Shown piece by piece: positions 10,026 through 27,737 of a stretch of 64,000 nucleotides of DNA (position 1 is the first letter of the stretch; each line of letters opens with the position of its first letter). The position numbers were made by a program, and so were the translations under genes. The stretch spans positions 1,152,001 to 1,216,000 of the forward strand of contig OZ245002.1 of NCBI GenBank assembly GCA_965223415.1, in the 5' to 3' direction. Source of the DNA: Myxococcota bacterium (GTDB lineage: Bacteria > Myxococcota_A > UBA9160 > UBA6930). Under the pieces are notes generated by a model, which made no database searches, was not told the DNA's origin, and saw only the letters and a program-made list of their open reading frames with translations.

Positions 10026-10131
10026 GGACTTCCAGCGGGTTGCCTCCCATCTCACCCCGGAATGAGGGTCTTCTGCCGCTTCGATGCGTCCTCTCGATCG
10101 ACTAAATTGTGTGATTTTCAACCCATTTTCT

Positions 10132-10159
10132 TCAAGCGAGGCTTCGGGCGCTCCGATGA
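10132..10159 (+). promoter_or_regulatory. sigma28-like promoter
   Basis: TCAA-N16-TCCGATGA upstream of the giant gene. Confidence 0.5.
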
Positions 10160-10239
10160 GTGCGGATACCGACCCCCGCGCACCGGCGCGAAGTGCCACG
10201 CCGGCGGGAGGGACACGAGCAGACAAGGAGAGCGCGCCT

Positions 10240-13200
10240 TTGGCCCGCCGGAGACGTCGTCAGCGCAAGAAGGCAGAGAGGAAGAAGGTCCTCCAGCAGC
10301 CGGGCCAGCCGGCCCTGGAGGCGCTGGAGCCGCGGGTCCTGCTCTCGACCTTCACCGTCGCCCCGGAGGCCGACTCGCTCGAGGAGGCGATGTCCGCCGC
10401 GGATCCCGCGACCGGCGCGATCGAGTTCACCCTGAATGCCGACCCCGCCGCCGCGGTCGACGAGGTCGCCGTCGAGAGCCGCTCCGAGCTTGTGTTCGTC
10501 GACACCGGCGTGGAGGACTATCAACGCCTCGTCGACGACCTGCGCGCCGCGAGCCCGGACGGCCGCACGGTGGAGGTCTTCCTGCTCGATACGGAGCGGG
10601 ACGGCGTCGAGCAGATCAGCGAGATCCTGAGCGACCACCAGGGCGTCGATGCGATCCACGTCGTCTCCCACGGCACCGACGGCGCCGTGCAGCTCGGAGA
10701 CACGTGGCTCTCGGGCGACACCCTCGCTCGCTACGAGACGGACCTCATGGGCTGGGCCGAAGCGCTCTCCGCGGAGGCCGACCTGCTCTTCTACGGCTGC
10801 GACCTGGCCGCGGGAGCGAGCGGCAATGCCCTGGTCCAGTCCATCGCGAAGCTGACGGGCGCCGACGTGGCGGCGAGCGAAGACCTCACCGGCGCGAAGG
10901 CGCTCGGAGGCGACTGGACCCTGGAGGTCGCCACCGGCGACGTGGAGACGAGCCTCGCCTTCAGCGAGACACTGCAGCGTTCGTGGAGCGCCACGCTCGA
11001 GACCGCGACCTTCCAGCAGGGGGTCGGCGGCTACACCGGAACCCTCGACACGGAGATCGACTCGGCGAACCCCGGGACGACACTCGGCAGCAGCGTCACC
11101 CTCGAAGCCGACACCGTCAATTCCAGCGGCGGGGTCTCTCAGGGGCTGCTCCAGTTCGGCGACTTGTTCGGAACGGGGCCGGGCCGCATCCCGCTCGGAT
11201 CGACGATCACGTCGGCGACCCTCGAGCTGAACGTCACGGATGCGACGGGGGCCAGTGCCAACGTCGCGCTCCACCGGATGCTCACGCCCTGGGACGAGTC
11301 CTCCACCTGGAACTCGCTCTCCGGCGGTGTTCAGTTCGACGACGTGGAGGCGATGATCGCGGCGGACGGTCAGGTGGCCACGCCCGCGGCGACCGGGCCG
11401 ATCACCGTCTCGGGGCTCGAGAGCGCGCTCCAATCCTGGTCCGACGGCGCCGGCAACCACGGCTGGGTGATCGACATCACCAGCTCCAACGCCTGGGTGG
11501 TGAGCACGTCGGAAGACGCCACGGCGAGCCTGCGGCCGAAACTGACCGTCGAGTACGTCGCCCCGAACAGCGTGGCCGTCGCGAGCGACGACTCCCTCAA
11601 CACCACCGAGGGCATCCCGGTCGTCTTCGACCCGACCAGCAACGATACGGACGCGGACTCCGAAGCCGTGAGCATCGTCGAGTTCACCCAGCCGGCCAAC
11701 GGGACCGTGGTCGACAACGGAGACGGCACGCTCACCTACACCCCGGACGGGGGCTTCTCGGGTGCCGACACCTTCGACTACCTGGCGATCGACGCCGGGA
11801 GCGGGCTGCAGCACCACTGGGGGCTTGCAGGGAATGCCACCGACTCGATCGGCGGCGCCGATGGCTCGCGGATCGGCACCACGACCGTGCCCGGGAACCT
11901 CGGCAGCGGCCTCTCCTTCGACGAGATCGACGACCACGTCCTGCTGCCGGACATCAGCTACGCCAGCGAGTTCACCGTCTCGTTCGACTTCAAGGTCGAC
12001 GAGAACAACGGCTCCCTCGTCCAGTACCTCTACAGCCACGGGGATGTCAACAGCACCAACAGCCTGAACGTCTTCCTCCTCGAAGGTGCTCACACGACCG
12101 ACCCCAATATGCTGCGCACGGTCATCCGCGACGGGAACGACACACTGGACAACAGCGCCCTCCAGGTGGACATCGCCTCGCTGGTCGGCGACAGCCAGTG
12201 GCACACCTACACCCTGACCGTCGGGGCAGCCGGGGCCGAGGTGTTCATCGACGGCGTGCTCTCCAACAGCGCTTCCTACGGCTCCGACGGCCTGGACCCG
12301 GCCGGAGACGTCCATCTCGGCGCGCGCCACGATCTCGACCCGGACAGATTCTTCGGGGGCTCCCTCGACTCCGTTCAGCTCTACTCCAGGGCGCTGAGCA
12401 GCACGGAGGTCTCGGATCTCGCCTCCAGGGCGAATCGGGCGACGGCCGTGGTCACGGTCGCTGCCGAACCGACGCCGACGGTCTCGGCCTCTGGGTCGTC
12501 CACGATCACCGCGGGAGCCGTCTACACCCTGAACCTGAGCAGTGCGAATCTCGGCACGATCAGCGGGTGGACCATCAACTGGGGAGACGGCACGATCGAT
12601 GCCGTGGCGGGCGATCCGGGATCCGTCGACCATGTCTACACCCAGGCGGGGATGACCCACGAGATCACGGTTTCCGCGACCGACGAGAATGGCACCTTCA
12701 CGAGCAGCCGGCTCTTGACGGCCAGTGACCACAACAGCACGGTCTACCTGCTCGACGGCAGCACCGGAGATATCGCGCAGAAGCTTCCCACCAGTCCAGA
12801 GCTGGCCCGAAGCACAGGCGCGACCATTGGCCCCGATGGGAACTTCTACGTAGCCTCGTTGGACACGGACAGCATCGTCCGCTTCGACGGCTCGACGGGG
12901 GCATTCCTAGGAACCTTCGTTTCCGCCGGTAGCGGAGGGCTGGACCAACCGATGGGCCTCGACTTCGGCGCGGACGGCAACCTCTACGTCGCTAGCTACG
13001 TCACGCACGAGGTCCTTCGCTACGACGCCGCAACGGGCGCCTTCATCGACGCCTTCGTCCCGTCCACAGCAGGCGTGAACGGTCCGACTTCTGTGGAGTT
13101 CGGCCCCGACGGCCACCTCTATGTCGCGAGCTGGTCCTCCGGCATGGTCCACCGCTTCGACGGAAGCACCGGCGCGTTCATCGACGACTTCGCCGATACC

Positions 13201-16200
13201 GGCGGTGCCGGCGCGACCGACGTGGCGTTCGGCCCAGACGGACACCTCTACGTCAGCAGTGCTCTCCAGAATCGCGTGTTCGAGTTCGACGGGGTGAACG
13301 GCGCCTCGCTCGACTCCTTCGCGGTCAGCTCCGCCTACTCCCTCGAGTTCGGGCCCGACGGGCACCTCTACGTCAGCCGCTGGGGCTACGACCTGATCGA
13401 GGAGTATGACCCCGACTCGAACACCCTGCTCGGCACTTTCGCCGACGCCGCTGACGGCATCGATGGGCCCTGGGGCATCGACTTCACGCCGAACCAGCAG
13501 GTCACCGTCCTGGCGAACCCCGCGCCGACGGCGGTGAACGACTTGGCCGCCGTGAACGAGGGTGGCAGCGTCATCATCGATGTGGCCGGGAACGACAGCG
13601 ATCCCAACAACGCCCTCGACCTCTCCTCCATCGCCGTCACCTCCGGGCCCGCCAACGGCTCCCTCGTCGACAACGGCGACGGCACCCTCACCTACACCCA
13701 TGACGGCTCCGAGACCGTCGGAGATTCCTTCTCCTACACCGTCGACGACGTCTTGGGCGCCAGCTCCAACGTCGCCAGTGTAACCCTCACGGTCACGCCG
13801 CAGAACGACTCTCCGTCGGTTGTCGGCCTCCACAACGACGAGCTGAACTACACGGAAGGAAGTGGCACCGTCATCCTCGAACAGGGGGGCGACGTCTTGG
13901 TCAGCGACGTGGACTCGGCGGACTTCGCCGGTGGGTCCCTGAATGTCGAGGTCGACAGCGGCCTGGTCGCCACCGAGGATGTCTTCGCGATCCGCAACCA
14001 GGGCTCGGGGGCCGGCCAGATCGGGATCGTGGGAAGCGATGTGACCTACGGCGGGGTGGTGATCGGCTCCTTCGTCGGTGGCACGGGCGTGACGCCCCTG
14101 ACGGTTTCGTTCAACTCGAATGCGACCGCCACCGCCGTGACGCACCTTGTCCGGAACATCACCTATGAGAATCTCGACCTCGAGGACCCGACCGAGGGTG
14201 CCCGCAGCGTGACGGTCGACATCACGGACGGTGATGGAGGGACGAGCGGCACCCAGAACCTGACCGTCAACGTCACGGCGGTGAACGATCAAGCCATTGC
14301 CGACCTCGATGGCGCGGACGGAGCGGGCCGCGATTTTTCGGCGACCTTTACTGAAGGGACGGGTCCCGTGGGCGTGACCGACGCCGACGCCACGGTATCC
14401 GATGTCGACGACTCCGACTTCGCGGGACTCGGAATCAACCTGTCTGACTTCCTGGACGGGACCAGCGAGAAGATCACGATCGCCGGCTACACCTTCGCGT
14501 TCGGTGTGCCTGAGGTCGTTATTCGGACGATCGGAAGCACTGATTTCGAGATCGACTTCGACGGCAGCGGCTTCACGATCTCGCGGGACATCAGCGGCAA
14601 CATGCCGCAGGCCGACCTCCAGACGCTCGTCCGGGGCATCACCTACGAGAACACCTCCTCGGATCCCACGACCGGCGACCGATCCTTCGACATCATCCCC
14701 CAGGACGGCGGCGGGCTGAACGGCCTCTCGTCGACGGCCACGATCTCGGTCGTCGCTACGAACACGGCGCCCACGGCCCTCGATGATGCAGCCTCGGTCG
14801 ATGAAGGCGCCTCGGTGGTGATCGATCTCTCGGGCAACGACTCCGATCCGGACAACGCACTGGACCTCGGCTCGATCGTCATCACGTCAGGCCCTGCCAA
14901 CGGCACGCTGGTCGACAACGGCGATGGGACCCTCACCTACACCCACGACGGCTCCGAGACGATGGGGGACGGCTTCTCGTACACCATCCAGGATGCCTCG
15001 GGGGCCACCAGCAACGTCGCCTCGGTCACCCTGACCGTGACTCCGGTGAACGAGGCACCCACGGACGTCGTCTTCGACTCCGAGTCCACGGCGGAGCGGA
15101 GCCTCAACACCTACGGCACCGGGGACCAGATGGACCCGGCGATCGCCGCCCTGCCCGACGGTGGGTTCGTCGCGGTCTGGGTCTCTCAGGGTCAGGACGG
15201 AGATGGCTACGGCATCTACGGCCGGCGCTTCGACGCCGCGAGCGTTGCCGTGGGGTCCGAGTTCCTCGTCACCTCCGAGATCTCCGATCACGAGACCAAT
15301 CCTTCGGTCACGGCCTTCGCCGACGGCGGCTTCGCCGTCGCGTGGCAAGACCAGGCCTCCGGGGTCAACGCCTGGACCGAAGCCCGGGTCTTCGCGGCAG
15401 ACGGGACGCCAGCCTCGGGGGAGTTCCGCCTCAGCCCGGGACTCGATGGCGACCACGAGGGTTACCAGCCGGCGGTCGTCGCCCTCAACGCTGACGAGTT
15501 CGTCGCGGTCTGGGCCAACGAGGTGGGCGGATCAACCTACGAGGTCGTGGGTCGCATCTACGACCGGGCCGGCAACGCCGTCAGTGGGCAGTTCTCGGTC
15601 GGGTCCCTGGCCTCCGGCTCGGGGCTCTTCGGGGCTCAGACCGAGGTCGCGAGGCTCGACGACGGCGGCTTTGCGGTCGTGTGGCGGACCCACGACGGTG
15701 CGAATCTGGGAACCCGGGTTCGCGTCATGAATGCGGACGGGACCCCGCGGTCTGCGGAGCTGGTCCTCGCGGGCGACGACATCGGCGACGTTGCCGCGCT
15801 GTCGAGCGGTGGCTTCGTCGTCACCTACGATGCGTCCGGGGACCTCCATGCCTCGATCTTCGATGCCAGCGGAGTCTCCGTGGCGGGGCCCGTCAAGGTC
15901 AACACCACTTCCTCCGCCGCCCGCTACGAGTCGAGCGTCGCGCGCTCGGATGACGGCTTCGTCGTCGCCTGGGAATCGAGTGCGGGAGACGGAAGCGGCT
16001 CTTCCGTCCTCGCACAGCGCTTCGACGCGAACGGAACCCGGATCGACGCCGAGATCCTCGTCAACGAGACGACGACCGGCAACCAGGTCAAGCCGGAGCT
16101 CGTCGAGACGAGCTCCGGACAAGTCGTCGCGGTCTGGCAGAGCGAGAACGTCGACGCCGACCTCAGCGGCATCGCCTCCCGGGTGGTTGCCACCGGCTCG

Positions 16201-19200
16201 GCTTCGGTCGCCGAGAACGCGATCGCTGGGGCTCGGGTGGCGGATGCCCTCGGCGTCGCGGATCCCGACGCTGACGATACCCACACCTTCTCGCTGATCG
16301 ACGACGCGGGAGGCCGCTTCGCGATCGATTCGGTCACCGGCGAGATCACCGTGGCGGATGGAAGCCTGCTCGACTACGAAACCGCGACGAGCCACACCGT
16401 CACGGTACGCGCGACGGACGCCGGGGGCCTGAGCTACGACGAGGCCCTGGTCATCTCCCTGCTCGACGTCGACGAGGCCCCCTCGGCGGTGGCCGACGCC
16501 GCGACCGTCGGCGAGGGCGCAAGCGTCACGATCGACCTGGCCGCCAACGACGCCGATCCGGAGGGTGCCCTCGACCTGACCTCGATCCAGATCATCTCCG
16601 GCCCCGCCAACGGCACCTTGGTGGACAATGGCGACGGTACCCTCACCTACACCCACGATGGCTCCGAGACCGTTGGCGACAGCTTCTCCTACACCATCGA
16701 TGACGTCTCGGGGGCTGCCTCCAACGTCGCCTCGGTCACCCTGACGGTCACGCCCCAGAACGACGCCCCGACTGCGGCGAACGATGCGGCCACGGTCGAC
16801 GAGGGCAGCTCCGTCGTCATCAATCTCACCGGAAACGACTCCGACCCCGACAACGCCCTCGACCTCTCCTCGATCACGATCACCTCGGGCCCCGCCAACG
16901 GCACGCTGGTCGACCACGGCGACGGCACCTTCACCTACACCCACGATGGCTCCGAGACCGTTGGCGACAGCTTCTCCTACACCATCGATGACGTCTCGGG
17001 GGCTGCCTCCAACGTCGCCTCGGTCACCCTGACGGTCACGCCGCAGAACGATGCCCCGACTGCCACCAACGATGCGGCCACGGTCGACGAGGGCAGCTCC
17101 GTCGTGATCAATCTCACCGGAAACGACTCCGACCCCGACAACGCCCTCGATCTCTCCTCGATCACGATCACCAGCGGTCCCGCCAACGGCACGCTCGTCG
17201 ACCACGGCGACGGCACCCTCACCTACACCCACGATGGCTCCGAGACCGTTGGCGACTCCTTCTCCTACACCATCGACGACGTCTCGGGCGCCACCTCGAA
17301 CGTCGCCTCGGTCACCCTGACGGTCACGCCGCAGAACGATGCCCCGACTGCCACCAACGATGCGGCCACGGTCGACGAGGGCAGCTCCGTCGTGATCAAC
17401 CTGGCTGGGAACGACTCGGACCCGGACAACGCCCTCGACCTCTCCTCGATCACGATCACCTCGGGCCCCGCCAACGGCACCCTGGTGGACAATGGCGATG
17501 GCACCCTCACCTACACCCACGATGGCTCCGAGACCGTTGGCGACTCCTTCTCCTACAGCATCGATGACGTCTCGGGCGCCACCTCGAACGTCGCCTCCGT
17601 CACCCTGACGGTCACGCCGCAGAACGATGCCCCGACTGCCACCAACGATGCGGCCACGGTCGACGAGGGCAGCTCCGTCGTGATCAACCTGGCTGGGAAC
17701 GACTCGGACCCGGACAACGCCCTCGACCTCTCCTCGATCACGATCACCTCGGGCCCCGCCAACGGCACCCTGGTGGACAATGGCGATGGCACCCTCACCT
17801 ACACCCACGATGGCTCCGAGACCGTTGGCGACTCCTTCTCCTACAGCATCGATGACGTCTCGGGCGCCACCTCCAACGTCGCCTCCGTCACCCTGACCGT
17901 CACGCCCCAGAACGACGCCCCGACCGCCGCCAACGATGCGGCCACGGTCGACGAGGGCAGCTCCGTCGTGATCAACCTGGCCGGGAACGACTCGGATCCG
18001 GACAACGCTCTCGACCTCTCCTCGATCACGATCACCTCGGGTCCGACCAACGGCACGCTGGTCGACCACGGCGACGGCACCTTCACCTACACCCACGATG
18101 GCTCCGAGACCGTCGGCGACAGCTTCTCCTACAGCATCGATGACGTCTCGGGCGCCACCTCGAACGTTGCCTCCGTCACCCTGACCGTCACGCCGCAGAA
18201 CGACGCCCCGACCGCCGCGAACGATGCGGCCACGGTCGACGAGGGGAGCTCCGTCGTCATCAACCTCACCGGGAACGACTCGGACCCGGACAACGCTCTC
18301 GACCTCTCCTCGATCACGATCACCTCGGGCCCCGCCAACGGCACCCTGGTGGACAATGGCGACGGCACCTTCACCTACACCCACGACGGCTCCGAGACCG
18401 TTGGCGACAGCTTCTCCTACACCATCGATGACGTCTCGGGGGCTGCCTCCAACGTCGCCTCGGTCACCCTGACGGTCACGCCCCAGAACGACGCCCCGAC
18501 TGCGGCGAACGATGCGGCCACGGTCGACGAGGGCAGCTCCGTCGTCATCAATCTCACCGGGAACGACTCGGATCCGGACAACGCTCTCGACCTCTCCTCG
18601 ATCACGATCACCAGCGGTCCCGCCAACGGCACGCTGGTCGACCACGGTGACGGCACCTTCACCTACACCCACGACGGCTCCGAGACCGTTGGCGACTCCT
18701 TCTCCTACACCATCGACGACGTCTCGGGCGCCACCTCCAACGTCGCCTCGGTCACCCTGACCGTCACGCCCCAGAACGACGCCCCGACTGCGGCGAACGA
18801 TGCGGCCACGGTCGACGAGGGCAGCTCCGTCGTCATCAATCTCACCGGGAACGACTCGGATCCGGACAACGCTCTCGACCTCTCCTCGATCACGATCACC
18901 AGCGGTCCCGCCAACGGCACGCTGGTCGACCACGGTGACGGCACCTTCACCTACACCCACGACGGCTCCGAGACCGTTGGCGACTCCTTCTCCTACACCA
19001 TCGACGACGTCTCGGGCGCCACCTCCAACGTCGCCTCGGTCACCCTGACCGTCACGCCCCAGAACGACGCCCCGACTGCGGCGAACGATGCGGCCACGGT
19101 CGACGAGGGCAGCTCCGTCGTCATCAACCTGGCCGGGAACGACTCGGACCCGGACAACGCCCTCGACCTCTCCTCGATCACGATCACCAGCGGTCCCGCC

Positions 19201-22200
19201 AACGGCACGCTCGTCGACCACGGCGACGGCACCCTCACCTACACCCACGATGGCTCCGAGACCGTTGGCGACTCCTTCTCCTACACCATCGACGACGTCT
19301 CGGGCGCCACCTCGAACGTCGCCTCGGTCACCCTGACCGTCACGCCCCAGAACGACGCCCCGACCGCCGCGAACGATGCGGCCACGGTCGACGAGGGCAG
19401 CTCCGTCGTGATCAACCTGGCCGGGAACGACTCGGACCCGGACAACGCTCTCGACCTCTCCTCGATCACGATCACCAGCGGTCCCGCCAACGGCACGCTC
19501 GTCGACCACGGCGACGGCACCTTCACCTACACCCACGATGGCTCCGAGACCGTTGGCGACTCCTTCTCCTACACCATCGATGACGTCTCGGGCGCCACCT
19601 CGAACGTTGCCTCCGTCACCCTGACCGTCACGCCCCAGAACGACGCCCCGACTGCGGCGAACGATGCGGCCACCGTCGACGAGGGCAGCTCCGTCGTGAT
19701 CAACCTGGCCGGGAACGACTCGGACCCGGACAACGCCCTCGACCTCTCCTCGATCACGATCACCTCGGGCCCCGCCAACGGCACCCTGGTGGACAATGGC
19801 GATGGCACCCTCACCTACACCCACGATGGCTCCGAGACCGTTGGCGACTCCTTCACCTACACCATCGATGACGTCTCGGGCGCCACCTCGAACGTCGCCT
19901 CGGTCACCCTGACGGTCACGCCCCAGAACGACGCCCCGACTGCGGCGAACGATGCGGCCACCGTCGACGAGGGCAGCTCCGTCGTCATCAACCTGGCCGG
20001 GAACGACTCGGATCCGGACAACGCTCTCGACCTCTCCTCGATCACGATCACCAGCGGTCCCGCCAACGGCACGCTCGTCGACCACGGCGACGGCACCTTC
20101 ACCTACACCCACGATGGCTCCGAGACCGTTGGCGACTCCTTCTCCTACACCATCGATGACGTCTCGGGCGCCACCTCGAACGTTGCCTCCGTCACCCTGA
20201 CCGTCACGCCCCAGAACGACGCCCCGACTGCGGCGAACGATGCGGCCACCGTCGACGAGGGCAGCTCCGTCGTGATCAACCTGGCCGGGAACGACTCGGA
20301 CCCGGACAACGCCCTCGACCTCTCCTCGATCACGATCACCTCGGGCCCCGCCAACGGCACCCTGGTGGACAATGGCGATGGCACCCTCACCTACACCCAC
20401 GATGGCTCCGAGACCGTTGGCGACTCCTTCACCTACACCATCGATGACGTCTCGGGCGCCACCTCGAACGTCGCCTCGGTCACCCTGACGGTCACGCCCC
20501 AGAACGACGCCCCGACTGCGGCGAACGATGCGGCCACCGTCGACGAGGGCAGCTCCGTCGTCATCAACCTGGCCGGGAACGACTCGGATCCGGACAACGC
20601 TCTCGACCTCTCCTCGATCACGATCACCAGCGGTCCCGCCAACGGCACGCTGGTCGACCACGGTGACGGCACCTTCACCTACACCCACGACGGCTCCGAG
20701 ACCGTTGGCGACTCCTTCTCCTACACCATCGACGACGTCTCGGGCGCCACCTCCAACGTCGCCTCGGTCACCCTGACCGTCACGCCCCAGAACGACGCCC
20801 CGACTGCGGCGAACGATGCGGCCACGGTCGACGAGGGCAGCTCCGTCGTCATCAACCTGGCCGGGAACGACTCGGACCCGGACAACGCCCTCGACCTCTC
20901 CTCGATCACGATCACCAGCGGTCCCGCCAACGGCACGCTCGTCGACCACGGCGACGGCACCCTCACCTACACCCACGATGGCTCCGAGACCGTTGGCGAC
21001 TCCTTCTCCTACACCATCGACGACGTCTCGGGCGCCACCTCGAACGTCGCCTCGGTCACCCTGACCGTCACGCCCCAGAACGACGCCCCGACCGCCGCGA
21101 ACGATGCGGCCACGGTCGACGAGGGCAGCTCCGTCGTGATCAACCTGGCCGGGAACGACTCGGACCCGGACAACGCTCTCGACCTCTCCTCGATCACGAT
21201 CACCAGCGGTCCCGCCAACGGCACGCTCGTCGACCACGGCGACGGCACCTTCACCTACACCCACGATGGCTCCGAGACCGTTGGCGACTCCTTCTCCTAC
21301 ACCATCGATGACGTCTCGGGCGCCACCTCGAACGTTGCCTCCGTCACCCTGACCGTCACGCCCCAGAACGACGCCCCGACTGCGGCGAACGATGCGGCCA
21401 CCGTCGACGAGGGCAGCTCCGTCGTGATCAACCTGGCCGGGAACGACTCGGACCCGGACAACGCCCTCGACCTCTCCTCGATCACGATCACCTCGGGCCC
21501 CGCCAACGGCACCCTGGTGGACAATGGCGATGGCACCCTCACCTACACCCACGATGGCTCCGAGACCGTTGGCGACTCCTTCACCTACACCATCGATGAC
21601 GTCTCGGGCGCCACCTCGAACGTCGCCTCGGTCACCCTGACGGTCACGCCCCAGAACGACGCCCCGACTGCGGCGAACGATGCGGCCACCGTCGACGAGG
21701 GCAGCTCCGTCGTCATCAACCTGGCCGGGAACGACTCGGATCCGGACAACGCTCTCGACCTCTCCTCGATCACGATCACCAGCGGTCCCGCCAACGGCAC
21801 GCTGGTCGACCACGGTGACGGCACCTTCACCTACACCCACGACGGCTCCGAGACCGTTGGCGACTCCTTCTCCTACACCATCGACGACGTCTCGGGCGCC
21901 ACCTCCAACGTCGCCTCGGTCACCCTGACCGTCACGCCCCAGAACGACGCCCCGACTGCGGCGAACGATGCGGCCACCGTCGACGAGGGCAGCTCCGTCG
22001 TCATCAACCTGGCCGGGAACGACTCGGACCCGGACAACGCCCTCGACCTCTCCTCGATCACGATCACCAGCGGTCCCGCCAACGGCACGCTCGTCGACCA
22101 CGGCGACGGCACCCTCACCTACACCCACGATGGCTCCGAGACCGTCGGCGACTCCTTCTCCTACACCATCGATGACGTCTCGGGCGCCACCTCCAACGTC

Positions 22201-23988
22201 GCCTCCGTCACCCTGACGGTCACGCCCCAGAACGACAGCCCGATCCTCGGCAACAACGCCCTCACGATCTCCGAGGGTGGCGCGGTCATCCTCTCCAGCA
22301 CGGATCTCTCGGCCACCGACGCCGAGACCGGCGCTGGCCTCCTTCAGTTCACCGTCTCCGGCGTGACCGGCGGCCGGTTCGAGCTGGTCGGCAGCCCGGG
22401 CGTCCCGATCACCTCCTTCACCCAGGCCCAGGTCGCCGCCGGCCAGGTCCAGTTCGTCCATGACGGCGGCGAGGCGGCACCGGCCTATTCCGTCACGGTC
22501 TCGGACAGCGCCCTTATCGACGGCCCGCTCGCCGCGACCATCACTTTCACGAATGTTAACGACGTCCCCACCATCATCGACCAGCCCATGAGCGTGGACG
22601 AGAACACGCCCGCCGGGGCGCTGGTGGGCGCGGTGGCGGCCGGCGACGCGGACGCGGGCGACGCTCTCGTCTTCTCCATCACCGGCGGCAACACCGGTGG
22701 TGCGTTCGCGATCGATCCCGCCAACGGCGACCTCTTCGTCGCGGATCCCGCGCCGATCGATTTCGAGGTCAACCCGACGATCGCCCTGACGGTAACGGTC
22801 GAGGACCTGGCGGGTGCCACGGACTCGGCGACGGTCACAGTGAGCGTCCTGAACCTGAACGAGCCGCTCTCGATCACGGGACCGGGCGGCCTGAGCCTCG
22901 CACCCGGAGCCAGCCTGGTCTTCTCCACCACCGGGGGCACGTCGATCGCGATCAGCGATCCCGACGGACCGACGGCGCCGTTGGAGCTCACCCTCTCCGC
23001 GACGGGCGGCACGATGACGCTGCCGACCACCGCCGGGCTGGCGATGCTGGCGGGGACCGGTGCGGGCGACGCGACGATGACCTTCCGGGGCACGGTGGCG
23101 GCGGTGCAGACGGCACTCGAAGGCCTGGCCTTCGACTCCGACGGCAGCGCGAGCGCGGGCGTTGCCCTCGCGGCCACCGATCTCGGCCCGGGCGGCACGG
23201 CGGCCAGCGCCAACTTCGGCATCGCGGTCCAGACCGTCACGACGCCGACGCCCACGACCCCGCCGCCGGTCGATCCACCGGTGGACCCGCCGATCTCGCT
23301 CCCGCCCACCGAGATCACCGACCCGGCCGACCCCGAGGCACCGACCACGCGGAGCGGTCCGGAGAGCAGCGCCCCGGAGCCCGCTTCGCCGGCCCCGGAG
23401 CCCGTCGCCACCCCGACCAGCCTGGGACCGGCCCCTGGCTTCTCGGTTCCGAACAGGTACCAGATCGAACACGTGGAGTTCCGGCAGATCGAAGCGAACG
23501 ACGCGGAGGCGGCCCTGGTGGAAGGCACACCGCTGACACCCAGGGAGGATCTCTCGCCGCGGGAACACCGCGCCGGTGAGGTGCCGTTCGACCTCGGCCT
23601 GCTCCGCGCGAGCTTTGTCCATCCCGACTTCCTGGCCTCCCTCGATCGCATGCGCCAGGACGTGCTGGAGTCCGATCGCGAGACGTCCGGCGAACGGGAC
23701 TGGTTCGTCCCGGCGATCGAGAGCATCGCCATGGTCGCGACCACGGGCCTGCTCGCCGGCGTGCTGCGGGCCAGCTCGCTGCTGGCGGCGGCGATCTCCG
23801 CGGTGCCGCTCTGGAAGCAGGCCGACCCGCTGATGATCCTCTCGCTCTCGAAGGACGAGCGGCGGGACCTCGAGGCGAGCCTTCGCCACGAGCAGGGCCG
23901 TGAACGCGCCCTGGACGCAGTCCTCGACCGCCGGCCCCGTGCCGACGAGGCCGGGGAAGCGGAAGACGAGGAGACCCCGGAGGAGTAG
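10240..23988 (+). CDS. Giant repetitive surface protein/adhesin (LEPRxLL leader, DUF4347, DNRLRE-like, LamG-like, PKD, beta-propellers, cadherin/Ig-like repeats, Pro-rich linker, hydrophobic C-terminal motif)
   Basis: Single 13.7-kb ORF. Likely start TTG 10240 after AAGGAG (alternative ATG 10156). ALEALEPRVLLS; ELVFVDTGVEDYQRL...IHVVSHG...LLFYGCDLA...GGDWTLE (DUF4347); FGPDGHLYV repeats; LDYET cadherin. Confidence 0.92.
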   Translation: MARRRRRQRKKAERKKVLQQPGQPALEALEPRVLLSTFTVAPEADSLEEAMSAADPATGAIEFTLNADPAAAVDEVAVESRSELVFVDTGVEDYQRLVDDLRAASPDGRTVEVFLLDTERDGVEQISEILSDHQGVDAIHVVSHGTDGAVQLGDTWLSGDTLARYETDLMGWAEALSAEADLLFYGCDLAAGASGNALVQSIAKLTGADVAASEDLTGAKALGGDWTLEVATGDVETSLAFSETLQRSWSATLETATFQQGVGGYTGTLDTEIDSANPGTTLGSSVTLEADTVNSSGGVSQGLLQFGDLFGTGPGRIPLGSTITSATLELNVTDATGASANVALHRMLTPWDESSTWNSLSGGVQFDDVEAMIAADGQVATPAATGPITVSGLESALQSWSDGAGNHGWVIDITSSNAWVVSTSEDATASLRPKLTVEYVAPNSVAVASDDSLNTTEGIPVVFDPTSNDTDADSEAVSIVEFTQPANGTVVDNGDGTLTYTPDGGFSGADTFDYLAIDAGSGLQHHWGLAGNATDSIGGADGSRIGTTTVPGNLGSGLSFDEIDDHVLLPDISYASEFTVSFDFKVDENNGSLVQYLYSHGDVNSTNSLNVFLLEGAHTTDPNMLRTVIRDGNDTLDNSALQVDIASLVGDSQWHTYTLTVGAAGAEVFIDGVLSNSASYGSDGLDPAGDVHLGARHDLDPDRFFGGSLDSVQLYSRALSSTEVSDLASRANRATAVVTVAAEPTPTVSASGSSTITAGAVYTLNLSSANLGTISGWTINWGDGTIDAVAGDPGSVDHVYTQAGMTHEITVSATDENGTFTSSRLLTASDHNSTVYLLDGSTGDIAQKLPTSPELARSTGATIGPDGNFYVASLDTDSIVRFDGSTGAFLGTFVSAGSGGLDQPMGLDFGADGNLYVASYVTHEVLRYDAATGAFIDAFVPSTAGVNGPTSVEFGPDGHLYVASWSSGMVHRFDGSTGAFIDDFADTGGAGATDVAFGPDGHLYVSSALQNRVFEFDGVNGASLDSFAVSSAYSLEFGPDGHLYVSRWGYDLIEEYDPDSNTLLGTFADAADGIDGPWGIDFTPNQQVTVLANPAPTAVNDLAAVNEGGSVIIDVAGNDSDPNNALDLSSIAVTSGPANGSLVDNGDGTLTYTHDGSETVGDSFSYTVDDVLGASSNVASVTLTVTPQNDSPSVVGLHNDELNYTEGSGTVILEQGGDVLVSDVDSADFAGGSLNVEVDSGLVATEDVFAIRNQGSGAGQIGIVGSDVTYGGVVIGSFVGGTGVTPLTVSFNSNATATAVTHLVRNITYENLDLEDPTEGARSVTVDITDGDGGTSGTQNLTVNVTAVNDQAIADLDGADGAGRDFSATFTEGTGPVGVTDADATVSDVDDSDFAGLGINLSDFLDGTSEKITIAGYTFAFGVPEVVIRTIGSTDFEIDFDGSGFTISRDISGNMPQADLQTLVRGITYENTSSDPTTGDRSFDIIPQDGGGLNGLSSTATISVVATNTAPTALDDAASVDEGASVVIDLSGNDSDPDNALDLGSIVITSGPANGTLVDNGDGTLTYTHDGSETMGDGFSYTIQDASGATSNVASVTLTVTPVNEAPTDVVFDSESTAERSLNTYGTGDQMDPAIAALPDGGFVAVWVSQGQDGDGYGIYGRRFDAASVAVGSEFLVTSEISDHETNPSVTAFADGGFAVAWQDQASGVNAWTEARVFAADGTPASGEFRLSPGLDGDHEGYQPAVVALNADEFVAVWANEVGGSTYEVVGRIYDRAGNAVSGQFSVGSLASGSGLFGAQTEVARLDDGGFAVVWRTHDGANLGTRVRVMNADGTPRSAELVLAGDDIGDVAALSSGGFVVTYDASGDLHASIFDASGVSVAGPVKVNTTSSAARYESSVARSDDGFVVAWESSAGDGSGSSVLAQRFDANGTRIDAEILVNETTTGNQVKPELVETSSGQVVAVWQSENVDADLSGIASRVVATGSASVAENAIAGARVADALGVADPDADDTHTFSLIDDAGGRFAIDSVTGEITVADGSLLDYETATSHTVTVRATDAGGLSYDEALVISLLDVDEAPSAVADAATVGEGASVTIDLAANDADPEGALDLTSIQIISGPANGTLVDNGDGTLTYTHDGSETVGDSFSYTIDDVSGAASNVASVTLTVTPQNDAPTAANDAATVDEGSSVVINLTGNDSDPDNALDLSSITITSGPANGTLVDHGDGTFTYTHDGSETVGDSFSYTIDDVSGAASNVASVTLTVTPQNDAPTATNDAATVDEGSSVVINLTGNDSDPDNALDLSSITITSGPANGTLVDHGDGTLTYTHDGSETVGDSFSYTIDDVSGATSNVASVTLTVTPQNDAPTATNDAATVDEGSSVVINLAGNDSDPDNALDLSSITITSGPANGTLVDNGDGTLTYTHDGSETVGDSFSYSIDDVSGATSNVASVTLTVTPQNDAPTATNDAATVDEGSSVVINLAGNDSDPDNALDLSSITITSGPANGTLVDNGDGTLTYTHDGSETVGDSFSYSIDDVSGATSNVASVTLTVTPQNDAPTAANDAATVDEGSSVVINLAGNDSDPDNALDLSSITITSGPTNGTLVDHGDGTFTYTHDGSETVGDSFSYSIDDVSGATSNVASVTLTVTPQNDAPTAANDAATVDEGSSVVINLTGNDSDPDNALDLSSITITSGPANGTLVDNGDGTFTYTHDGSETVGDSFSYTIDDVSGAASNVASVTLTVTPQNDAPTAANDAATVDEGSSVVINLTGNDSDPDNALDLSSITITSGPANGTLVDHGDGTFTYTHDGSETVGDSFSYTIDDVSGATSNVASVTLTVTPQNDAPTAANDAATVDEGSSVVINLTGNDSDPDNALDLSSITITSGPANGTLVDHGDGTFTYTHDGSETVGDSFSYTIDDVSGATSNVASVTLTVTPQNDAPTAANDAATVDEGSSVVINLAGNDSDPDNALDLSSITITSGPANGTLVDHGDGTLTYTHDGSETVGDSFSYTIDDVSGATSNVASVTLTVTPQNDAPTAANDAATVDEGSSVVINLAGNDSDPDNALDLSSITITSGPANGTLVDHGDGTFTYTHDGSETVGDSFSYTIDDVSGATSNVASVTLTVTPQNDAPTAANDAATVDEGSSVVINLAGNDSDPDNALDLSSITITSGPANGTLVDNGDGTLTYTHDGSETVGDSFTYTIDDVSGATSNVASVTLTVTPQNDAPTAANDAATVDEGSSVVINLAGNDSDPDNALDLSSITITSGPANGTLVDHGDGTFTYTHDGSETVGDSFSYTIDDVSGATSNVASVTLTVTPQNDAPTAANDAATVDEGSSVVINLAGNDSDPDNALDLSSITITSGPANGTLVDNGDGTLTYTHDGSETVGDSFTYTIDDVSGATSNVASVTLTVTPQNDAPTAANDAATVDEGSSVVINLAGNDSDPDNALDLSSITITSGPANGTLVDHGDGTFTYTHDGSETVGDSFSYTIDDVSGATSNVASVTLTVTPQNDAPTAANDAATVDEGSSVVINLAGNDSDPDNALDLSSITITSGPANGTLVDHGDGTLTYTHDGSETVGDSFSYTIDDVSGATSNVASVTLTVTPQNDAPTAANDAATVDEGSSVVINLAGNDSDPDNALDLSSITITSGPANGTLVDHGDGTFTYTHDGSETVGDSFSYTIDDVSGATSNVASVTLTVTPQNDAPTAANDAATVDEGSSVVINLAGNDSDPDNALDLSSITITSGPANGTLVDNGDGTLTYTHDGSETVGDSFTYTIDDVSGATSNVASVTLTVTPQNDAPTAANDAATVDEGSSVVINLAGNDSDPDNALDLSSITITSGPANGTLVDHGDGTFTYTHDGSETVGDSFSYTIDDVSGATSNVASVTLTVTPQNDAPTAANDAATVDEGSSVVINLAGNDSDPDNALDLSSITITSGPANGTLVDHGDGTLTYTHDGSETVGDSFSYTIDDVSGATSNVASVTLTVTPQNDSPILGNNALTISEGGAVILSSTDLSATDAETGAGLLQFTVSGVTGGRFELVGSPGVPITSFTQAQVAAGQVQFVHDGGEAAPAYSVTVSDSALIDGPLAATITFTNVNDVPTIIDQPMSVDENTPAGALVGAVAAGDADAGDALVFSITGGNTGGAFAIDPANGDLFVADPAPIDFEVNPTIALTVTVEDLAGATDSATVTVSVLNLNEPLSITGPGGLSLAPGASLVFSTTGGTSIAISDPDGPTAPLELTLSATGGTMTLPTTAGLAMLAGTGAGDATMTFRGTVAAVQTALEGLAFDSDGSASAGVALAATDLGPGGTAASANFGIAVQTVTTPTPTTPPPVDPPVDPPISLPPTEITDPADPEAPTTRSGPESSAPEPASPAPEPVATPTSLGPAPGFSVPNRYQIEHVEFRQIEANDAEAALVEGTPLTPREDLSPREHRAGEVPFDLGLLRASFVHPDFLASLDRMRQDVLESDRETSGERDWFVPAIESIAMVATTGLLAGVLRASSLLAAAISAVPLWKQADPLMILSLSKDERRDLEASLRHEQGRERALDAVLDRRPRADEAGEAEDEETPEE
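16468..22236 (+). repeat. Tandem array of 20 x 288-bp (96-aa) Ig/cadherin-like units
   Basis: QND codons recur every 288 bp from 16756 to 22228 (19 near-identical units), plus a more diverged first unit. Dispersed copies lie near 13520-13805 and 14760-15050. Confidence 0.97.
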
Positions 23989-24606: not shown

Positions 24607-25743
24607 CTAGCCCCCGCTCGCCAGCCCGGGCAGCTCGATCGCGAAGCACGCGCCCCCGAGCTCGGACTTCTCGAGGCGGATGCGGCCGTGGTGCTGGTCG
24701 ATCACGAGCTTGACGATGGCGAGGCCGAGGCCGTTGCCGTTGGCCTTGCCCGCGGTGTAGAAGGGCTCGAAGATGCGCTCCCGGATCGCCGCGGCGATCC
24801 CCGGGCCCGAGTCGGCGAGGCGAAGGTGGAGGGTGGCGTCGGCGTCCTGCTGGCAGGAGAGATCGATGCGTCCGCCGTCGGGCATCGCCTCGATGGCGTT
24901 CTGCACGAGATTGCGCAGGGCGCGGGTGAGGCGATCGGTGTTTCCGCGGAAGGAGGCGCCGGTCGGAGCGGGGAGGTCCAGCTGGACGCCGCTGCGGGAG
25001 GCCAGCTCGAGGTAGGGAGCCACCGCGGCCTGCACCAGCTCGTCCAGGTCCACCTCGGCGAGCTCCCCCTCCTGGCCGGACACCCGGGAGATCTCGAGGA
25101 GCTCTTCGCACATCCCGTTCAGGTGCCGCGCTTCCTGGAGGATGCTCTCGCGAAGGGCGGCGACGTCGTCGGGTGGTGCCTGGGCCAGGCCTTCGATGAC
25201 CGAGAGCGGGCCGCGAATGTCGTGGACGACGGTGGCGATGGCCTTGCCGATCGCCGCGAGGCAGCGGGCCTGCTCGAGCTGCTCCTGGGAGACCTGGAGC
25301 TCGTCGCGGACGGTCTCGAGCTCGTGGTTCTGTTCGACGGTCACGGACACGAGCCGCCGGTTCTCTCGGGCCAGGTTGACCCGATCCAGCACGCCGCGCA
25401 CCGAGGCCTCGAGGTCCGGCGGCGCGCAGGGCTTGTGGAGATAGGCATGGACGCGGCCGTGGTTGATGGCGTCCACGGTGGCGTCCATGTCGGAGTAGCC
25501 GGTCAACAGGATGCGGCCGACGTTCTCGTCCTGGCAGGCGATCTTGCCCAGCAGCTCGACCCCGGACATGCCGGGCATGCGCTGGTCGGAAACCACCAGC
25601 TCGAAGGCCGCCGGCGCGAACCTCTGCCAGGCCTCGTCGCCGCTGGCCGCGGTCTCGATCCGGCCGATGCGGCGGAGAGAACGCACCAGCAACTCGACGG
25701 CCCGGGGCTCGTCGTCGACGACCAGGATGCGGGGCTTGTCCAC
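24607..25743 (-). CDS. Hybrid response regulator-histidine kinase (REC-HisKA-HATPase)
   Basis: ILVVDDE, SDQRMPGMSG, VHDIRGPL, NLVQNAIEAM, DSGPGI, GNGLGL. Confidence 0.92.
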   Translation of the reverse strand: MDKPRILVVDDEPRAVELLVRSLRRIGRIETAASGDEAWQRFAPAAFELVVSDQRMPGMSGVELLGKIACQDENVGRILLTGYSDMDATVDAINHGRVHAYLHKPCAPPDLEASVRGVLDRVNLARENRRLVSVTVEQNHELETVRDELQVSQEQLEQARCLAAIGKAIATVVHDIRGPLSVIEGLAQAPPDDVAALRESILQEARHLNGMCEELLEISRVSGQEGELAEVDLDELVQAAVAPYLELASRSGVQLDLPAPTGASFRGNTDRLTRALRNLVQNAIEAMPDGGRIDLSCQQDADATLHLRLADSGPGIAAAIRERIFEPFYTAGKANGNGLGLAIVKLVIDQHHGRIRLEKSELGGACFAIELPGLASGG

Positions 25744-25750
25744 GATCCGT

Positions 25751-25778
25751 CCATCGGCCGACCCGAGAGGCGACCTGA
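25751..25778 (-). promoter_or_regulatory. sigma28-like promoter
   Basis: TCAG-N16-GCCGATGG, 7 nt before GTG 25743. Confidence 0.55.
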
Positions 25779-25814
25779 GACCGGGGAGCTCCGCGACGGC
25801 TCACCTTGTACCTC

Positions 25815-26000
25815 TGAGCAGGCTCTTCGGGCCTGAGTGAGACTCCGAGATGGGTTCCCGGGAAAGGCCGTCGCTGCCTGAAGCCAGAGAGCTTGTCCGT
25901 TAGATGGGCCTCCCGCCCTCGTCACCCATGCCGTGGAGTATCCGAGGCCCGAGAGCCTGCGTCTACAAGGTCCGTAGGTGAATGTGCAGGGTCGGGAGAC
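25815..26000 (+). ncRNA. Bridge RNA in the IS110 left non-coding end (boundaries approximate)
   Basis: 5' hairpin, then two internal-loop stems. GGAGTATC (25935-42) and TACAAG (25964-69) match the donor; CCGTTAG (25897-903) is the reverse complement of the right target flank. Confidence 0.85.
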
Positions 26001-26033
26001 CCGGGTCCCAGCTTATCACGGGGAGGAGAGACC

Positions 26034-27029
26034 TTGAAGAAGTGTCATTACGTGGGCGTGGACGTCGGGGCGAAGGAGCTCGTCGTCGCCATCGACCGGA
26101 ACGGAACTCGCGAGGGCGGGCTGGTCTTTGCGAACGATCCCAAGGGCCACCAGAGGCTGATTCGGTGGGCCACGAAGGGGAATGCGACGGCGCGCGTCGT
26201 CCTGGAATCGACCGGGGTGTACGGCCTCGACCTCGCGTTCGCGCTTCACCGTGCGAAGGCGTCCCAGGTGATGGTGGCGAACCCGCGGGCCATTGCCGCG
26301 TTCGCCAAGGCATCGCTTCAACGCTCCAAGACGGATGCGCTCGATGCGGAAACGATTCTCGAGTTCGGAATGCGCATGGAGTTTTCCGCCTGGACTCCGC
26401 CGGACCCCCGAATTCTGGAGGTACGGGCCCTCTCCCGCCGCGTGGAGGCTCTGAGCAAGACCGTGACGCAGGAGAAGAACCGGCTCCATGCCAACGACCA
26501 GAGCGAGGAGCTCAGTGAGTTCGTGAAGCAAGACATCCGCGAACTGATCGAGCTCCTGGAGGGGCGAATCGATCGGCTGCGCAAGCAAGCGTTGAAGGTG
26601 ATCGAGCAGAGCCCCGAGCTCGCCAGAGACTTCGGCCACATCACATCGATCAAGGGTATCGCCGACGCAGCCGGCATCCAGTTGCTCGCCGAGCTAGGCA
26701 CCTTGCCCAAGGACATGACGACCCGGCAATGGGTCGCGCATGCGGGCCTCGACCCCCGACAGTTTCAATCGGGCACCTCTGTGCACAAGCCAGCTCGCAT
26801 CAGCAAGACCGGCAACGCCCACCTTCGCCGCGCACTCTTTCTTCCTGCGATGGTCGCTGCACGCTGGGAACCGAACGTGAAGGCCTTCTACGAGAAGCTG
26901 CTCTCCAAGGGCAAAACCAAGATGCAAGCACTCGTCGCCGTCATGCGGAAGCTGCTCCACGCCATCTACGGCATGCTCCGCCACGACCAGGACTTCCTTG
27001 GCGAGAAATTCTTCGCCACGAAGGGTTGA
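26034..27029 (+). CDS. IS110-family DEDD recombinase/transposase (~331 aa)
   Basis: VGVDVG, VLESTG, SKTDALDAE (DEDD); FQSGTS catalytic Ser; ISKTGNAHLRRAL; VAVMRKL. TTG start after GGAGG. Confidence 0.95.
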   Translation: MKKCHYVGVDVGAKELVVAIDRNGTREGGLVFANDPKGHQRLIRWATKGNATARVVLESTGVYGLDLAFALHRAKASQVMVANPRAIAAFAKASLQRSKTDALDAETILEFGMRMEFSAWTPPDPRILEVRALSRRVEALSKTVTQEKNRLHANDQSEELSEFVKQDIRELIELLEGRIDRLRKQALKVIEQSPELARDFGHITSIKGIADAAGIQLLAELGTLPKDMTTRQWVAHAGLDPRQFQSGTSVHKPARISKTGNAHLRRALFLPAMVAARWEPNVKAFYEKLLSKGKTKMQALVAVMRKLLHAIYGMLRHDQDFLGEKFFATKG

Positions 27030-27044
27030 CGACGAAGGGAGTAT

Positions 27045-27737
27045 CTAACGGGAGCCGTCGATCCAATCCCGGAGCCGCCGGGCGGCCCCCTCGCCGACGT
27101 CGTCGAAGACCACGTCGAGACCGCCGGAGCGGCCCCAGGTGGGCTCCACGACGCTCTCGACGTGCGCGGTGATCGGCAGCCGCTGGCGATTCACCACCAG
27201 CGTGAGCACGAGCTCCGTGCCTGCGGCGACGGGGCCCTCTGCCCGCAGGAAGGCCCCATCGGGTCGGAGCGACTCGATCTCCCAGGCCACGGTGGGTGCC
27301 ATGGGCTCCTCCGGGTCGACGAGCAGCGCGTGCCCGATCGGGGTGGTGACGCGTTGGGTGGACGGCACGGAGAAGCGCTCCGGGCTGTGGCGCTCCCACA
27401 CCTCGATCACGTCGCGCAGCGTGAGGGGCTTCGGCAGGTAGTCGAGGGCGCCGAGGCGATGGGCCAGGGTGGCACCGCCGGGCGTCGGCTTGGACGTGAC
27501 CAGGATCGACGGAAGCTCCGGGCGCTCGTCGCGCAACAGGTCGAAGCCGGTTCCGTCCGGGAGTACGACGTCGCTGATGAGCAGATCGACGTCGTCCCGC
27601 CTCTGGAGCTGCTCGGCGGCCTCGGCGCAGGTGCGAGCGGCGATCACCTCGTCGCAGCAGGTGTCGAGCATGCGGTGCAGGGCGTCGGAGAACACGGCCG
27701 AGTCGTCGACCAGCAGCACGGTTCCGAGCGAAGTCAT
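27045..27737 (-). CDS. Response regulator with a possible PilZ-like C-terminal domain
   Basis: VLLVDDS, SDVVLPDGTG, DYLPKP; C-terminal ESLRPDGAFL...GLDVVF beta-barrel pattern. Confidence 0.8.
   Translation of the reverse strand: MTSLGTVLLVDDSAVFSDALHRMLDTCCDEVIAARTCAEAAEQLQRRDDVDLLISDVVLPDGTGFDLLRDERPELPSILVTSKPTPGGATLAHRLGALDYLPKPLTLRDVIEVWERHSPERFSVPSTQRVTTPIGHALLVDPEEPMAPTVAWEIESLRPDGAFLRAEGPVAAGTELVLTLVVNRQRLPITAHVESVVEPTWGRSGGLDVVFDDVGEGAARRLRDWIDGSR

Follow-up and report, generated by a model that had tools for sequence, protein, structure and literature searches.

An IS621-like element with an attC-type target loop in a Myxococcota genome and the fit of its guides to the insertion site

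Results and discussion

An IS110-group element bracketed by CT cores

The DNA analysed here (called the window) is a stretch of 64,000 nucleotides (nt) from a Myxococcota bacterium (assembly GCA_965223415.1, contig OZ245002.1, positions 1,152,001 to 1,216,000 of the forward strand), and the subject of this study is a 1,240-bp element of the IS110 group within it, bracketed by copies of the dinucleotide CT at 25805-06 and 27045-46. The left junction reads GGCTCAC(25798-804)-CT(25805-06)-TGTAC and the right junction GGAGTAT(27038-44)-CT(27045-46)-AACGG(27047-51), with CT as the core dinucleotide at both. A long non-coding left end lies 5' of the recombinase gene and a short right end follows it, the IS621-type layout that is given for the IS110 group in the legend to Extended Data Fig. 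10 of Durrant et al. 2024. A search for further copies in the 64-kb window found none. A preliminary description of this DNA had listed junctions, guide words, stems and a TTGACG motif, and all of these are present at the coordinates that it gave. The parts of the element, read from the sequence except where other evidence is named, are the following.

25798..25804, plus strand: left target (LT), GGCTCAC; together with the core it matches the left target guide at 3/9 positions
25805..25806, plus strand: left copy of the CT core
25807..26033, plus strand: left end (LE), 227 nt, non-coding, bridge-RNA-encoding (sequence and covariance-model match)
26022-28, plus strand: ribosome-binding site GGAGGAG
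26034..27029, plus strand: IS110-family recombinase gene, TTG start, TGA stop at 27027-29 (Pfam, NCBIfam, structure alignment)
27030..27044, plus strand: right end (RE), 15 nt beyond the stop codon
27038..27044, plus strand: left donor (LD), GGAGTAT, the final bases of the right end
27045..27046, plus strand: right CT core copy, which together with A27047 makes up the TAG stop of the minus-strand gene 27045-27737
27047..27051, plus strand: right target (RT), AACGG

The recombinase contains both the RuvC-like DEDD domain and the IS110-specific Tnp domain (Pfam DEDD_Tnp_IS110, PF01548, 92.2 bits; Transposase_20, PF02371, 73.8 bits), and matched NCBIfam NF033542 ('IS110 family RNA-guided transposase') with 218 bits (cutoff 140). 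Residues 3-320 could be aligned with IS621 (PDB 8wt6, E = 2e-46); the strongest match to a solved structure was the ISCro4 transposase (PDB 9t56, E = 4e-49, residues 3-320), a likeness seen solely at the level of the protein alignment. The open reading frame (ORF) is intact and all five catalytic residues of IS621 (D, E, D, D, Ser) are kept: with a chain numbering offset of 2, D10, E58, D101, D104, S246 and G247 align with IS621 D11, E60, D102, D105, S241 and G242, which are described as essential in the structural paper on IS621. An identical protein was found on one contig only, of 5.83 Mb, and many relatives, mostly on short contigs, had 64-87% identity.

Guides for the donor junction and the target

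Guides were defined after Durrant et al. 2024 and Hiraizumi et al. 2024. The left target guide (LTG) equals the top strand of LT plus core, and the right target guide (RTG) the reverse complement of core plus RT; correspondingly, the left donor guide (LDG) equals the top strand of LD plus core, and the right donor guide (RDG) the reverse complement of core plus right donor (RD). The handshake of the target-binding loop (TBL) consists of the 2 nt 3' of the RTG and pairs with LD positions 6-7, and its counterpart in the donor-binding loop (DBL) of the 2 nt 3' of the RDG, pairing with LT positions 6-7. The following assignments resulted for the window copy.

25871..25879, plus strand: LTG TCGCTGCCT, set for ..GCTGC-CT targets and not for the window site
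25897..25905, plus strand: RTG CCGTTAG with handshake AT, reverse complement of AT-CT-AACGG at the right junction
25935..25942, plus strand: LDG GGAGTATC, equal to LD GGAGTAT plus the C of the core
25964..25971, plus strand: RDG TACAAG (25964-69) with handshake GT, reverse complement of AC-CT-TGTA at the left junction

The donor loop is complementary to the element's own RE-LE junction, as the preliminary description had proposed: the LDG GGAGTATCC agrees with GGAGTATCT at 8/9 positions (the LDG of IS621 is likewise described as pairing only 8 nt) and the RDG supplies six contiguous matched bases. The accompanying claim that the guides also match the insertion site stood for the right half, in which the RTG (25897-903) matches the flank at 7/7 positions, plus the 2 handshake nt, and fell for the left half, which had been left unexamined and in which the LTG TCGCTGCCT and the left flank GGCTCACCT agree at 3/9. 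Since its LTG matches so poorly, the window copy does not appear to occupy its cognate site. A bulged pairing of LTG and LT (8/10, with two single-base bulges) was set aside as likely due to chance in GC-rich sequence. Both handshakes can pair with positions 6-7 of the non-cognate DNA, AT being the reverse complement of LD positions 6-7 ('AT') and GT that of LT positions 6-7 ('AC'); as GT is conserved across the clade, it is not an adaptation to the window site.

The left end contains CCGTTAG, GGAGTATC and TACAAG once each, which exceeds chance: among 200,000 sequences simulated for these 227 nt with a first-order Markov model, the words were found in 1.3%, 0.6% and 0.8%, respectively, and all three together in none. 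The target half-site CTAACGG has only two occurrences in the window, one being the right junction and the other the complement of the guide.

A conserved two-loop RNA

A scan of a genome collection gave 79 related loci (labelled L001, L002 and so on), in about a dozen of which the start of the left end was set by inspection. Sixteen well-aligned left ends were folded with RNAalifold into two modules, from which a covariance model, R1 (161 positions, 30 pairs), was built. Searched against the window and the 79 loci, R1 gave 42 matches, all on the recombinase strand; outside the window's own match these represent 40 loci, two of the 42 lying in the two tandem copies of L024. In all 28 loci in which upstream sequence had been inspected or the left-end start mapped, the match lay upstream of the recombinase gene. 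The window RNA had the second-highest score (186 bits). Its predicted structural parts, with five helices in the two modules, are given below.

25819..25835, plus strand: predicted 5' stem-loop CAGGC/GCCTG (read from this sequence only; the region is variable in relatives)
25866..25910, plus strand: target-binding loop module, outer stem GGCC/GGCC, inner hairpin AAGC(25881-84)/GCTT(25891-94) (helices 1-2)
25911..25997, plus strand: donor-binding loop module, long outer stem including TCACC/GGTGA, inner hairpin AGGC(25945-48)/GCCT(25955-58) (helices 3-5)

In the R1 alignment 95.1% of the cells were paired, against 33-49% when the partners were slid by 1-3 columns, and changes on both sides of a pair (compensatory changes) were seen in 23 of the 30 base pairs, a number equalled in none of 500 shuffles. 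Fitting the alignment to the model gives the structure an advantage, but the slid controls still fall far short. Helices 1 and 2, which form the target module, were paired throughout (100%), with both-side changes in 7/8 pairs. Each of the two loops thus carries a conserved stem-loop, and covariation in relatives supports the helices of the preliminary description, namely the closing stem GGCC/GGCC around the hairpin AAGC/GCTT and the closing stem TCACC/GGTGA around the hairpin AGGC/GCCT. A further candidate helix, CCCGGG/CCCGGG, enclosed both modules in folds; it was aligned inconsistently and was kept out of the models. With the protein match and the guide complementarity, the covariation supports the earlier assignment to the IS110 group, with a CT core and a two-loop bridge RNA of the IS621 type.

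A copy on a Salinibacter ruber plasmid (L081), with 50% protein identity, has a matching RNA (L081:1231-1432, plus strand, 50.8 bits) directly 5' of the gene, so the RNA family extends to Rhodothermota.

Guides track flanking DNA across lineages

The alignment of the flanks of other copies, also proposed earlier, showed that the guides follow the flanks across lineages above the level of permutation. For 19 distinct guide pairs, the matches outside the core summed to 85 for LT and 81 for RT, compared with permuted means of 50.0 +/- 5.5 and 41.8, respectively, and none of 20,000 permutations reached the observed sums. Complementarity to both halves of the target is in this way evident for the family, and at the window copy for the right half (7/7 vs 3/9). 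Among 32 distinct LT sites, LTG and LT agreed at 9/9 positions in one, 8/9 in 13, 7/9 in eight, 6/9 in five, 5/9 in one, 4/9 in one and 3/9 in three, the window being among these three lowest; at least 7/9 were matched in 22 of the 32. The same reading of the guides holds in a natural IS621-family copy (L080), where the LTG ATCGGGCCT faces the flank ATCGGGTCT and the RTG GTAG faces CTAC. Other lineages of the RNA family have different target loops and lie at different, non-attC sites, as expected for a programmable guide.

Four loci (L004, L006, L007 and L013) have AT at the left junction and CT at the right (for example L006:2276-77 and 3512-13); their LTGs end in AT and their RTGs in AG, and neighbouring attC arms in L006 read ATAACGG. 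From the junction cores, the guide ends and these arms it follows that the cores are AT in the target and CT in the donor. These copies are natural cases of recombination across a core mismatch, each junction keeping its top-strand core.

The covariation and the flank agreement bear on an alternative to a guide RNA, namely that the left end is a mere 5' leader or a transposase-binding end whose word matches are terminal repeats. The expression of the RNA is presumed from sequence, its junction -10 is weak (see below) and the single-sequence fold is not significant, all of which such a leader would accommodate. However, the words of the target loop vary between lineages in step with host DNA that lies outside the element, 23/30 helix pairs show compensatory changes, and the protein is homologous to that of IS621, for which a bridge RNA encoded in the left end has been validated; we regard this alternative as extremely unlikely.

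Two side observations concern individual relatives. L009 contains further IS110-family transposase genes on both sides of the element (L009:1021-2268 and L009:5118-5990, both minus strand), which suggests that several IS110-family elements have repeatedly hit one array. Directly 5' of the full element, L014 and L015 carry a partial duplicate of the left-end start (L014:1931-2124, 194 nt; L015:2086-2125, 40 nt), and the LTG-matching flank is that of the outer copy.

Relatives with the same target loop occupy integron attC sites

The LTG and RTG of the window copy recur, identical or nearly so, in L001, L005, L012, L016 and L045, and the right flanks of these and related loci are similar across phyla. 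When the flanks were rejoined, 8 of 13 relatives gave imperfect palindromes of 64-180 bp bounded by RYYYAAC/GTTRRRY (strict regular expression); near-consensus partners were recognised by eye in L006, L007 and L012, and none in L005 and L022. With an attC-arm position-weight matrix, which replaced a stricter detector (positive control on rejoined sites only 6.5-13), further co-oriented arm motifs were found every 0.45-1 kb in 10 of the 13 loci, with scores of 17-33 (null maximum 15). In L006, the arm motifs at 1010, 4177 and 4650 have candidate ORFs of the opposite strand starting 16-27 nt to their left. The sites of these relatives are integron attC sites (GCCTAAC...GTTAGGC palindromes) in cassette arrays, and the elements split one attC core site at GTT-AG-GC. 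From the orientation of the cassette ORFs, this is most likely the R' side, GTTAGGC.

L010 also encodes an integron integrase (L010:2830-3756, minus strand; TIGR02249, 427 bits, cutoff 265), about 1 kb from the 64-bp attC that the insertion sequence interrupts and oriented like the adjacent cassette-like ORF.

The window site itself is of a different kind: it contains ACCTAAC, with no GTTRRRY partner within 190 nt, and the weight matrix detected no attC arm motif above the null anywhere in the 64-kb window. The preliminary description had credited the element with a specificity of its own; the target loop proved to be common to relatives in attC sites, and the window site is not an attC.

A candidate promoter at the circle junction

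Two motifs would be brought together if the ends of the element were rejoined.

27026..27031, plus strand: right-end -35 TTGACG, which overlaps the TGA stop (27027-29); the position of TTGAC is conserved in relatives
25809-14, plus strand: candidate -10 TACCTC, 2/6 vs TATAAT

The spacer between TTGACG and TACCTC would then be 17 nt. TTGAC was equidistant from the end in 20 of the 22 relatives whose right end was kept and inspected (L010 has TTGGC, and L019 differs). The corresponding -10 reads TATATC in most relatives and TATTAT in L080. At the window, the weakness of the -10, as noted before, was confirmed. With this weak -10, and with no sigma-70-like site in the integrated state, expression of the bridge RNA is presumed.

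The window insertion site is a hairpin between two genes

Outside the element, the flanks contain two arms that the insertion has separated.

25795..25802, plus strand: left arm GACGGCTC of the split hairpin, perfect complement of 27052-59
27052..27059, plus strand: right arm GAGCCGTC of the split hairpin, perfect complement of 25795-802

Rejoined, the empty site forms a hairpin with an 8-bp stem and the loop ACCTAACGG. The rejoined flanks fold at -30.8 kcal/mol, a value reached by 3/500 shuffles, and only 12 of the 3,647 CT dinucleotides of the element-free window are bracketed by an 8-bp inverted repeat. The insertion lies in the loop of this hairpin, at the TAG stop (27047-45, minus strand) of a response-regulator gene (27045-27737, minus strand) and 61 nt upstream of a gene for a hybrid response regulator/histidine kinase (24607-25743, minus strand). 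Because the core is duplicated, the stop codon of the response-regulator gene is preserved; the kinase gene may be subject to a polar effect, since the insertion splits a hairpin between genes of the same strand. With the cognate target the window site has in common only C-CT-AACGG. We speculate that the hairpin may have helped in the choice of this site; a preprint on ISPpu10 describes a target stem-loop as a second layer of specificity.

The perfect 8-bp inverted repeat of the flanks argues against a deletion or a mis-set boundary. It also bears on the possibility that the element is an immobile relic, which arrived by another route or decayed later, the left-arm mismatch reflecting a later change of the flank. 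The occurrence of the identical protein on a single contig and the weak -10 would be compatible with a relic, but the ORF is intact with all catalytic residues kept, the RNA gave the second-highest R1 match (186 bits), both ends and both copies of the core are intact, and the inverted repeat speaks against a left junction altered by deletion or rearrangement. We consider a relic very unlikely.

Of more weight is the possibility that the window site is cognate after all, specificity being set by the 7-nt RTG, the core and the handshakes, perhaps on a hairpin-presented strand, with a left arm that is dispensable or tolerant of bulges. The RTG has 7 nt here and 4 nt in IS621, RT is matched at 6-7/7 or 5-6/6 positions in almost every site while LT scores vary between 3/9 and 9/9, LTG position 1 is mismatched in most relatives, and attC sites and the window site are both hairpin-capable, for which the stem-loop layer of ISPpu10 would be a parallel. 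However, LTG-LT matching (85 vs 50.0 +/- 5.5) far exceeds permutation, so the left arm is under selection; L001 and L005 share the LTG of the window copy, which is the ancestral guide of attC type and is not adapted to GGCTCAC; and the target lies in the stem of attC sites, but in the loop at the window. A cognate window site is therefore unlikely, although it deserves to be kept in view.

Elsewhere in the window, positions 10084-23988 (plus strand) hold an ORF of 4,634 amino acids that contains some 25 bacterial repeats of cadherin-like and Ig-like type (Cadherin_4, Big_9, Cadherin_5); a tandem array of 288-nt units (16472-22243) falls within this ORF.

A probable half-match insertion

A recent preprint on IS621 (bioRxiv 10.64898/2026.08.31.748434) reports that a substrate complementary over the core and one arm suffices for insertion (a 'half-match'), on the basis of in vitro work and a re-analysis of engineered E. 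coli data; its in vivo classes leave out events matching in RT only, since the RTG of IS621 has only 4 nt. The window copy fits the half-match pattern described there and, judged from this one insertion, would be a natural RT-only case with an RTG of 7 nt. The reading that we favour, with a probability of roughly 0.7, is thus that the window holds an intact IS621-like, attC-directed element, and that this copy is a natural, right-arm-only half-match insertion off its target.

According to this model, excision would produce a rejoined RE-LE junction in which the -35 of the right end is placed beside the left end, and the junction promoter would drive a bridge RNA of about 185 nt. The donor loop (GGAGTATC / TACAAG) would recognise the element's own junction, GGAGTAT-CT-TGTAC, and the target loop (LTG TCGCTGCCT, RTG CCGTTAG) would be set for ..GCTGC-CT-AACGG.., the attC core site in relatives. 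At the window, the element would have integrated at GGCTCAC-CT-AACGG, where the core, the 7-nt RTG and both handshakes can pair and the LTG does not.

Several observations weigh against this interpretation. The transcription of the RNA, the formation of the circle, the activity of the element and the half-match route, perhaps hairpin-helped, are steps that we infer from sequence. The -10 TACCTC matches TATAAT at 2/6 positions and lacks the final T, and the integrated element showed no sigma-70-like promoter. Folding the left end as a single sequence did not give the two loops and was no better than for shuffles (minimum free energy (MFE) z-scores -0.91 and -1.28), the window RNA when constrained to the consensus folds at 5.4 kcal/mol above the MFE, and an Rfam 15 scan of 25300-27500 gave chance-level matches only and no fitting family. 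A broader covariance model, R2, matched the natural IS621-family left end of L080 at the donor loop with only 11.2 bits (E = 0.24), and R1 did not match it. An empty allele was not seen, and the boundaries are supported internally, by the inverted repeat of the flanks. CTAACGG is expected about twice per 64 kb, which amounts to about a hundred half-sites in a 5.8-Mb genome, and the right arm alone can therefore not explain the choice of site. The relatives offer one clean precedent, L029 (LT 4/9, RT 5/7): of the other two 3/9 scorers, which are not clean, L009 abuts another IS110-family gene and L014 has the duplicated left-end start.

Comparison with known systems

The IS621-type features that are testable in sequence were all found, with the exception of the left-arm target match, the -10 (2/6) and RNA similarity to IS621 (11.2 bits, E = 0.24). 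IS621 of E. coli and the window element have in common the pair of domains and the catalytic residues, the long non-coding left end, short right end and CT core, and an RNA of two loops with LTG/RTG followed by LDG/RDG and handshakes 3' of RTG and RDG. The donor of the window, GGAGTAT-CT-TGTAC, is nearly the same as that of the IS621-family copy L080 (ACAGTAT-CT-TGTAT, guides ACAGTATC and GCAAGGT). They differ in protein sequence (about 36% identity to IS621), in the length of the RTG (7 vs 4 nt), in the long outer stem of the donor module of the window RNA, where the further CCCGGG/CCCGGG helix may enclose both modules, in the -10 of the junction (TACCTC vs TATTAT in L080) and in the class of target, which is attC-like in the clade of the window element and of the type ATCGGG(C/T)-CT-AC in L080. 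By covariance models, the similarity of the two RNAs is not significant (R2, E = 0.24).

The IS1111-attC group (ISKpn4, ISPst6, ISPa25) comprises RNA-guided elements with DEDD transposases that insert at one end of attC, and its guide (seekRNA) is described as lying downstream of the transposase gene, with subterminal inverted repeats (PMC11187229). This group and the relatives of the window element have the target class in common. With a guide upstream of the gene and a right end of only 15 nt, the window element lacks the downstream guide and the long right end, and is therefore not a member of that group. In a literature search that had most subscription journals outside its reach, attC targeting was described only for IS1111-type elements and for no IS110-type bridge RNA.

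We tentatively suggest, at slightly less than even odds, that the upstream-guide IS110-type clade with attC-core target loops, which occurs in Myxococcota, Gemmatimonadota and genomes of Spirochaete type, represents, beside the IS1111-attC group, a second and independent lineage of RNA-guided parasites of cassette arrays, and that, as the window copy would illustrate, a 7-nt right guide with core and handshake on a hairpin-presented site may suffice for escape into ordinary chromosomal DNA.

Conclusions

As bridge RNAs are known and thousands of orthologues have been predicted, the element in itself is ordinary. An IS110-type clade aimed at attC, a class of target that is in print for IS1111-type elements only, is of modest specialist interest. 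A natural right-arm-only half-match, if true, would bear on the off-target rules of the bridge recombinases used in genome engineering.

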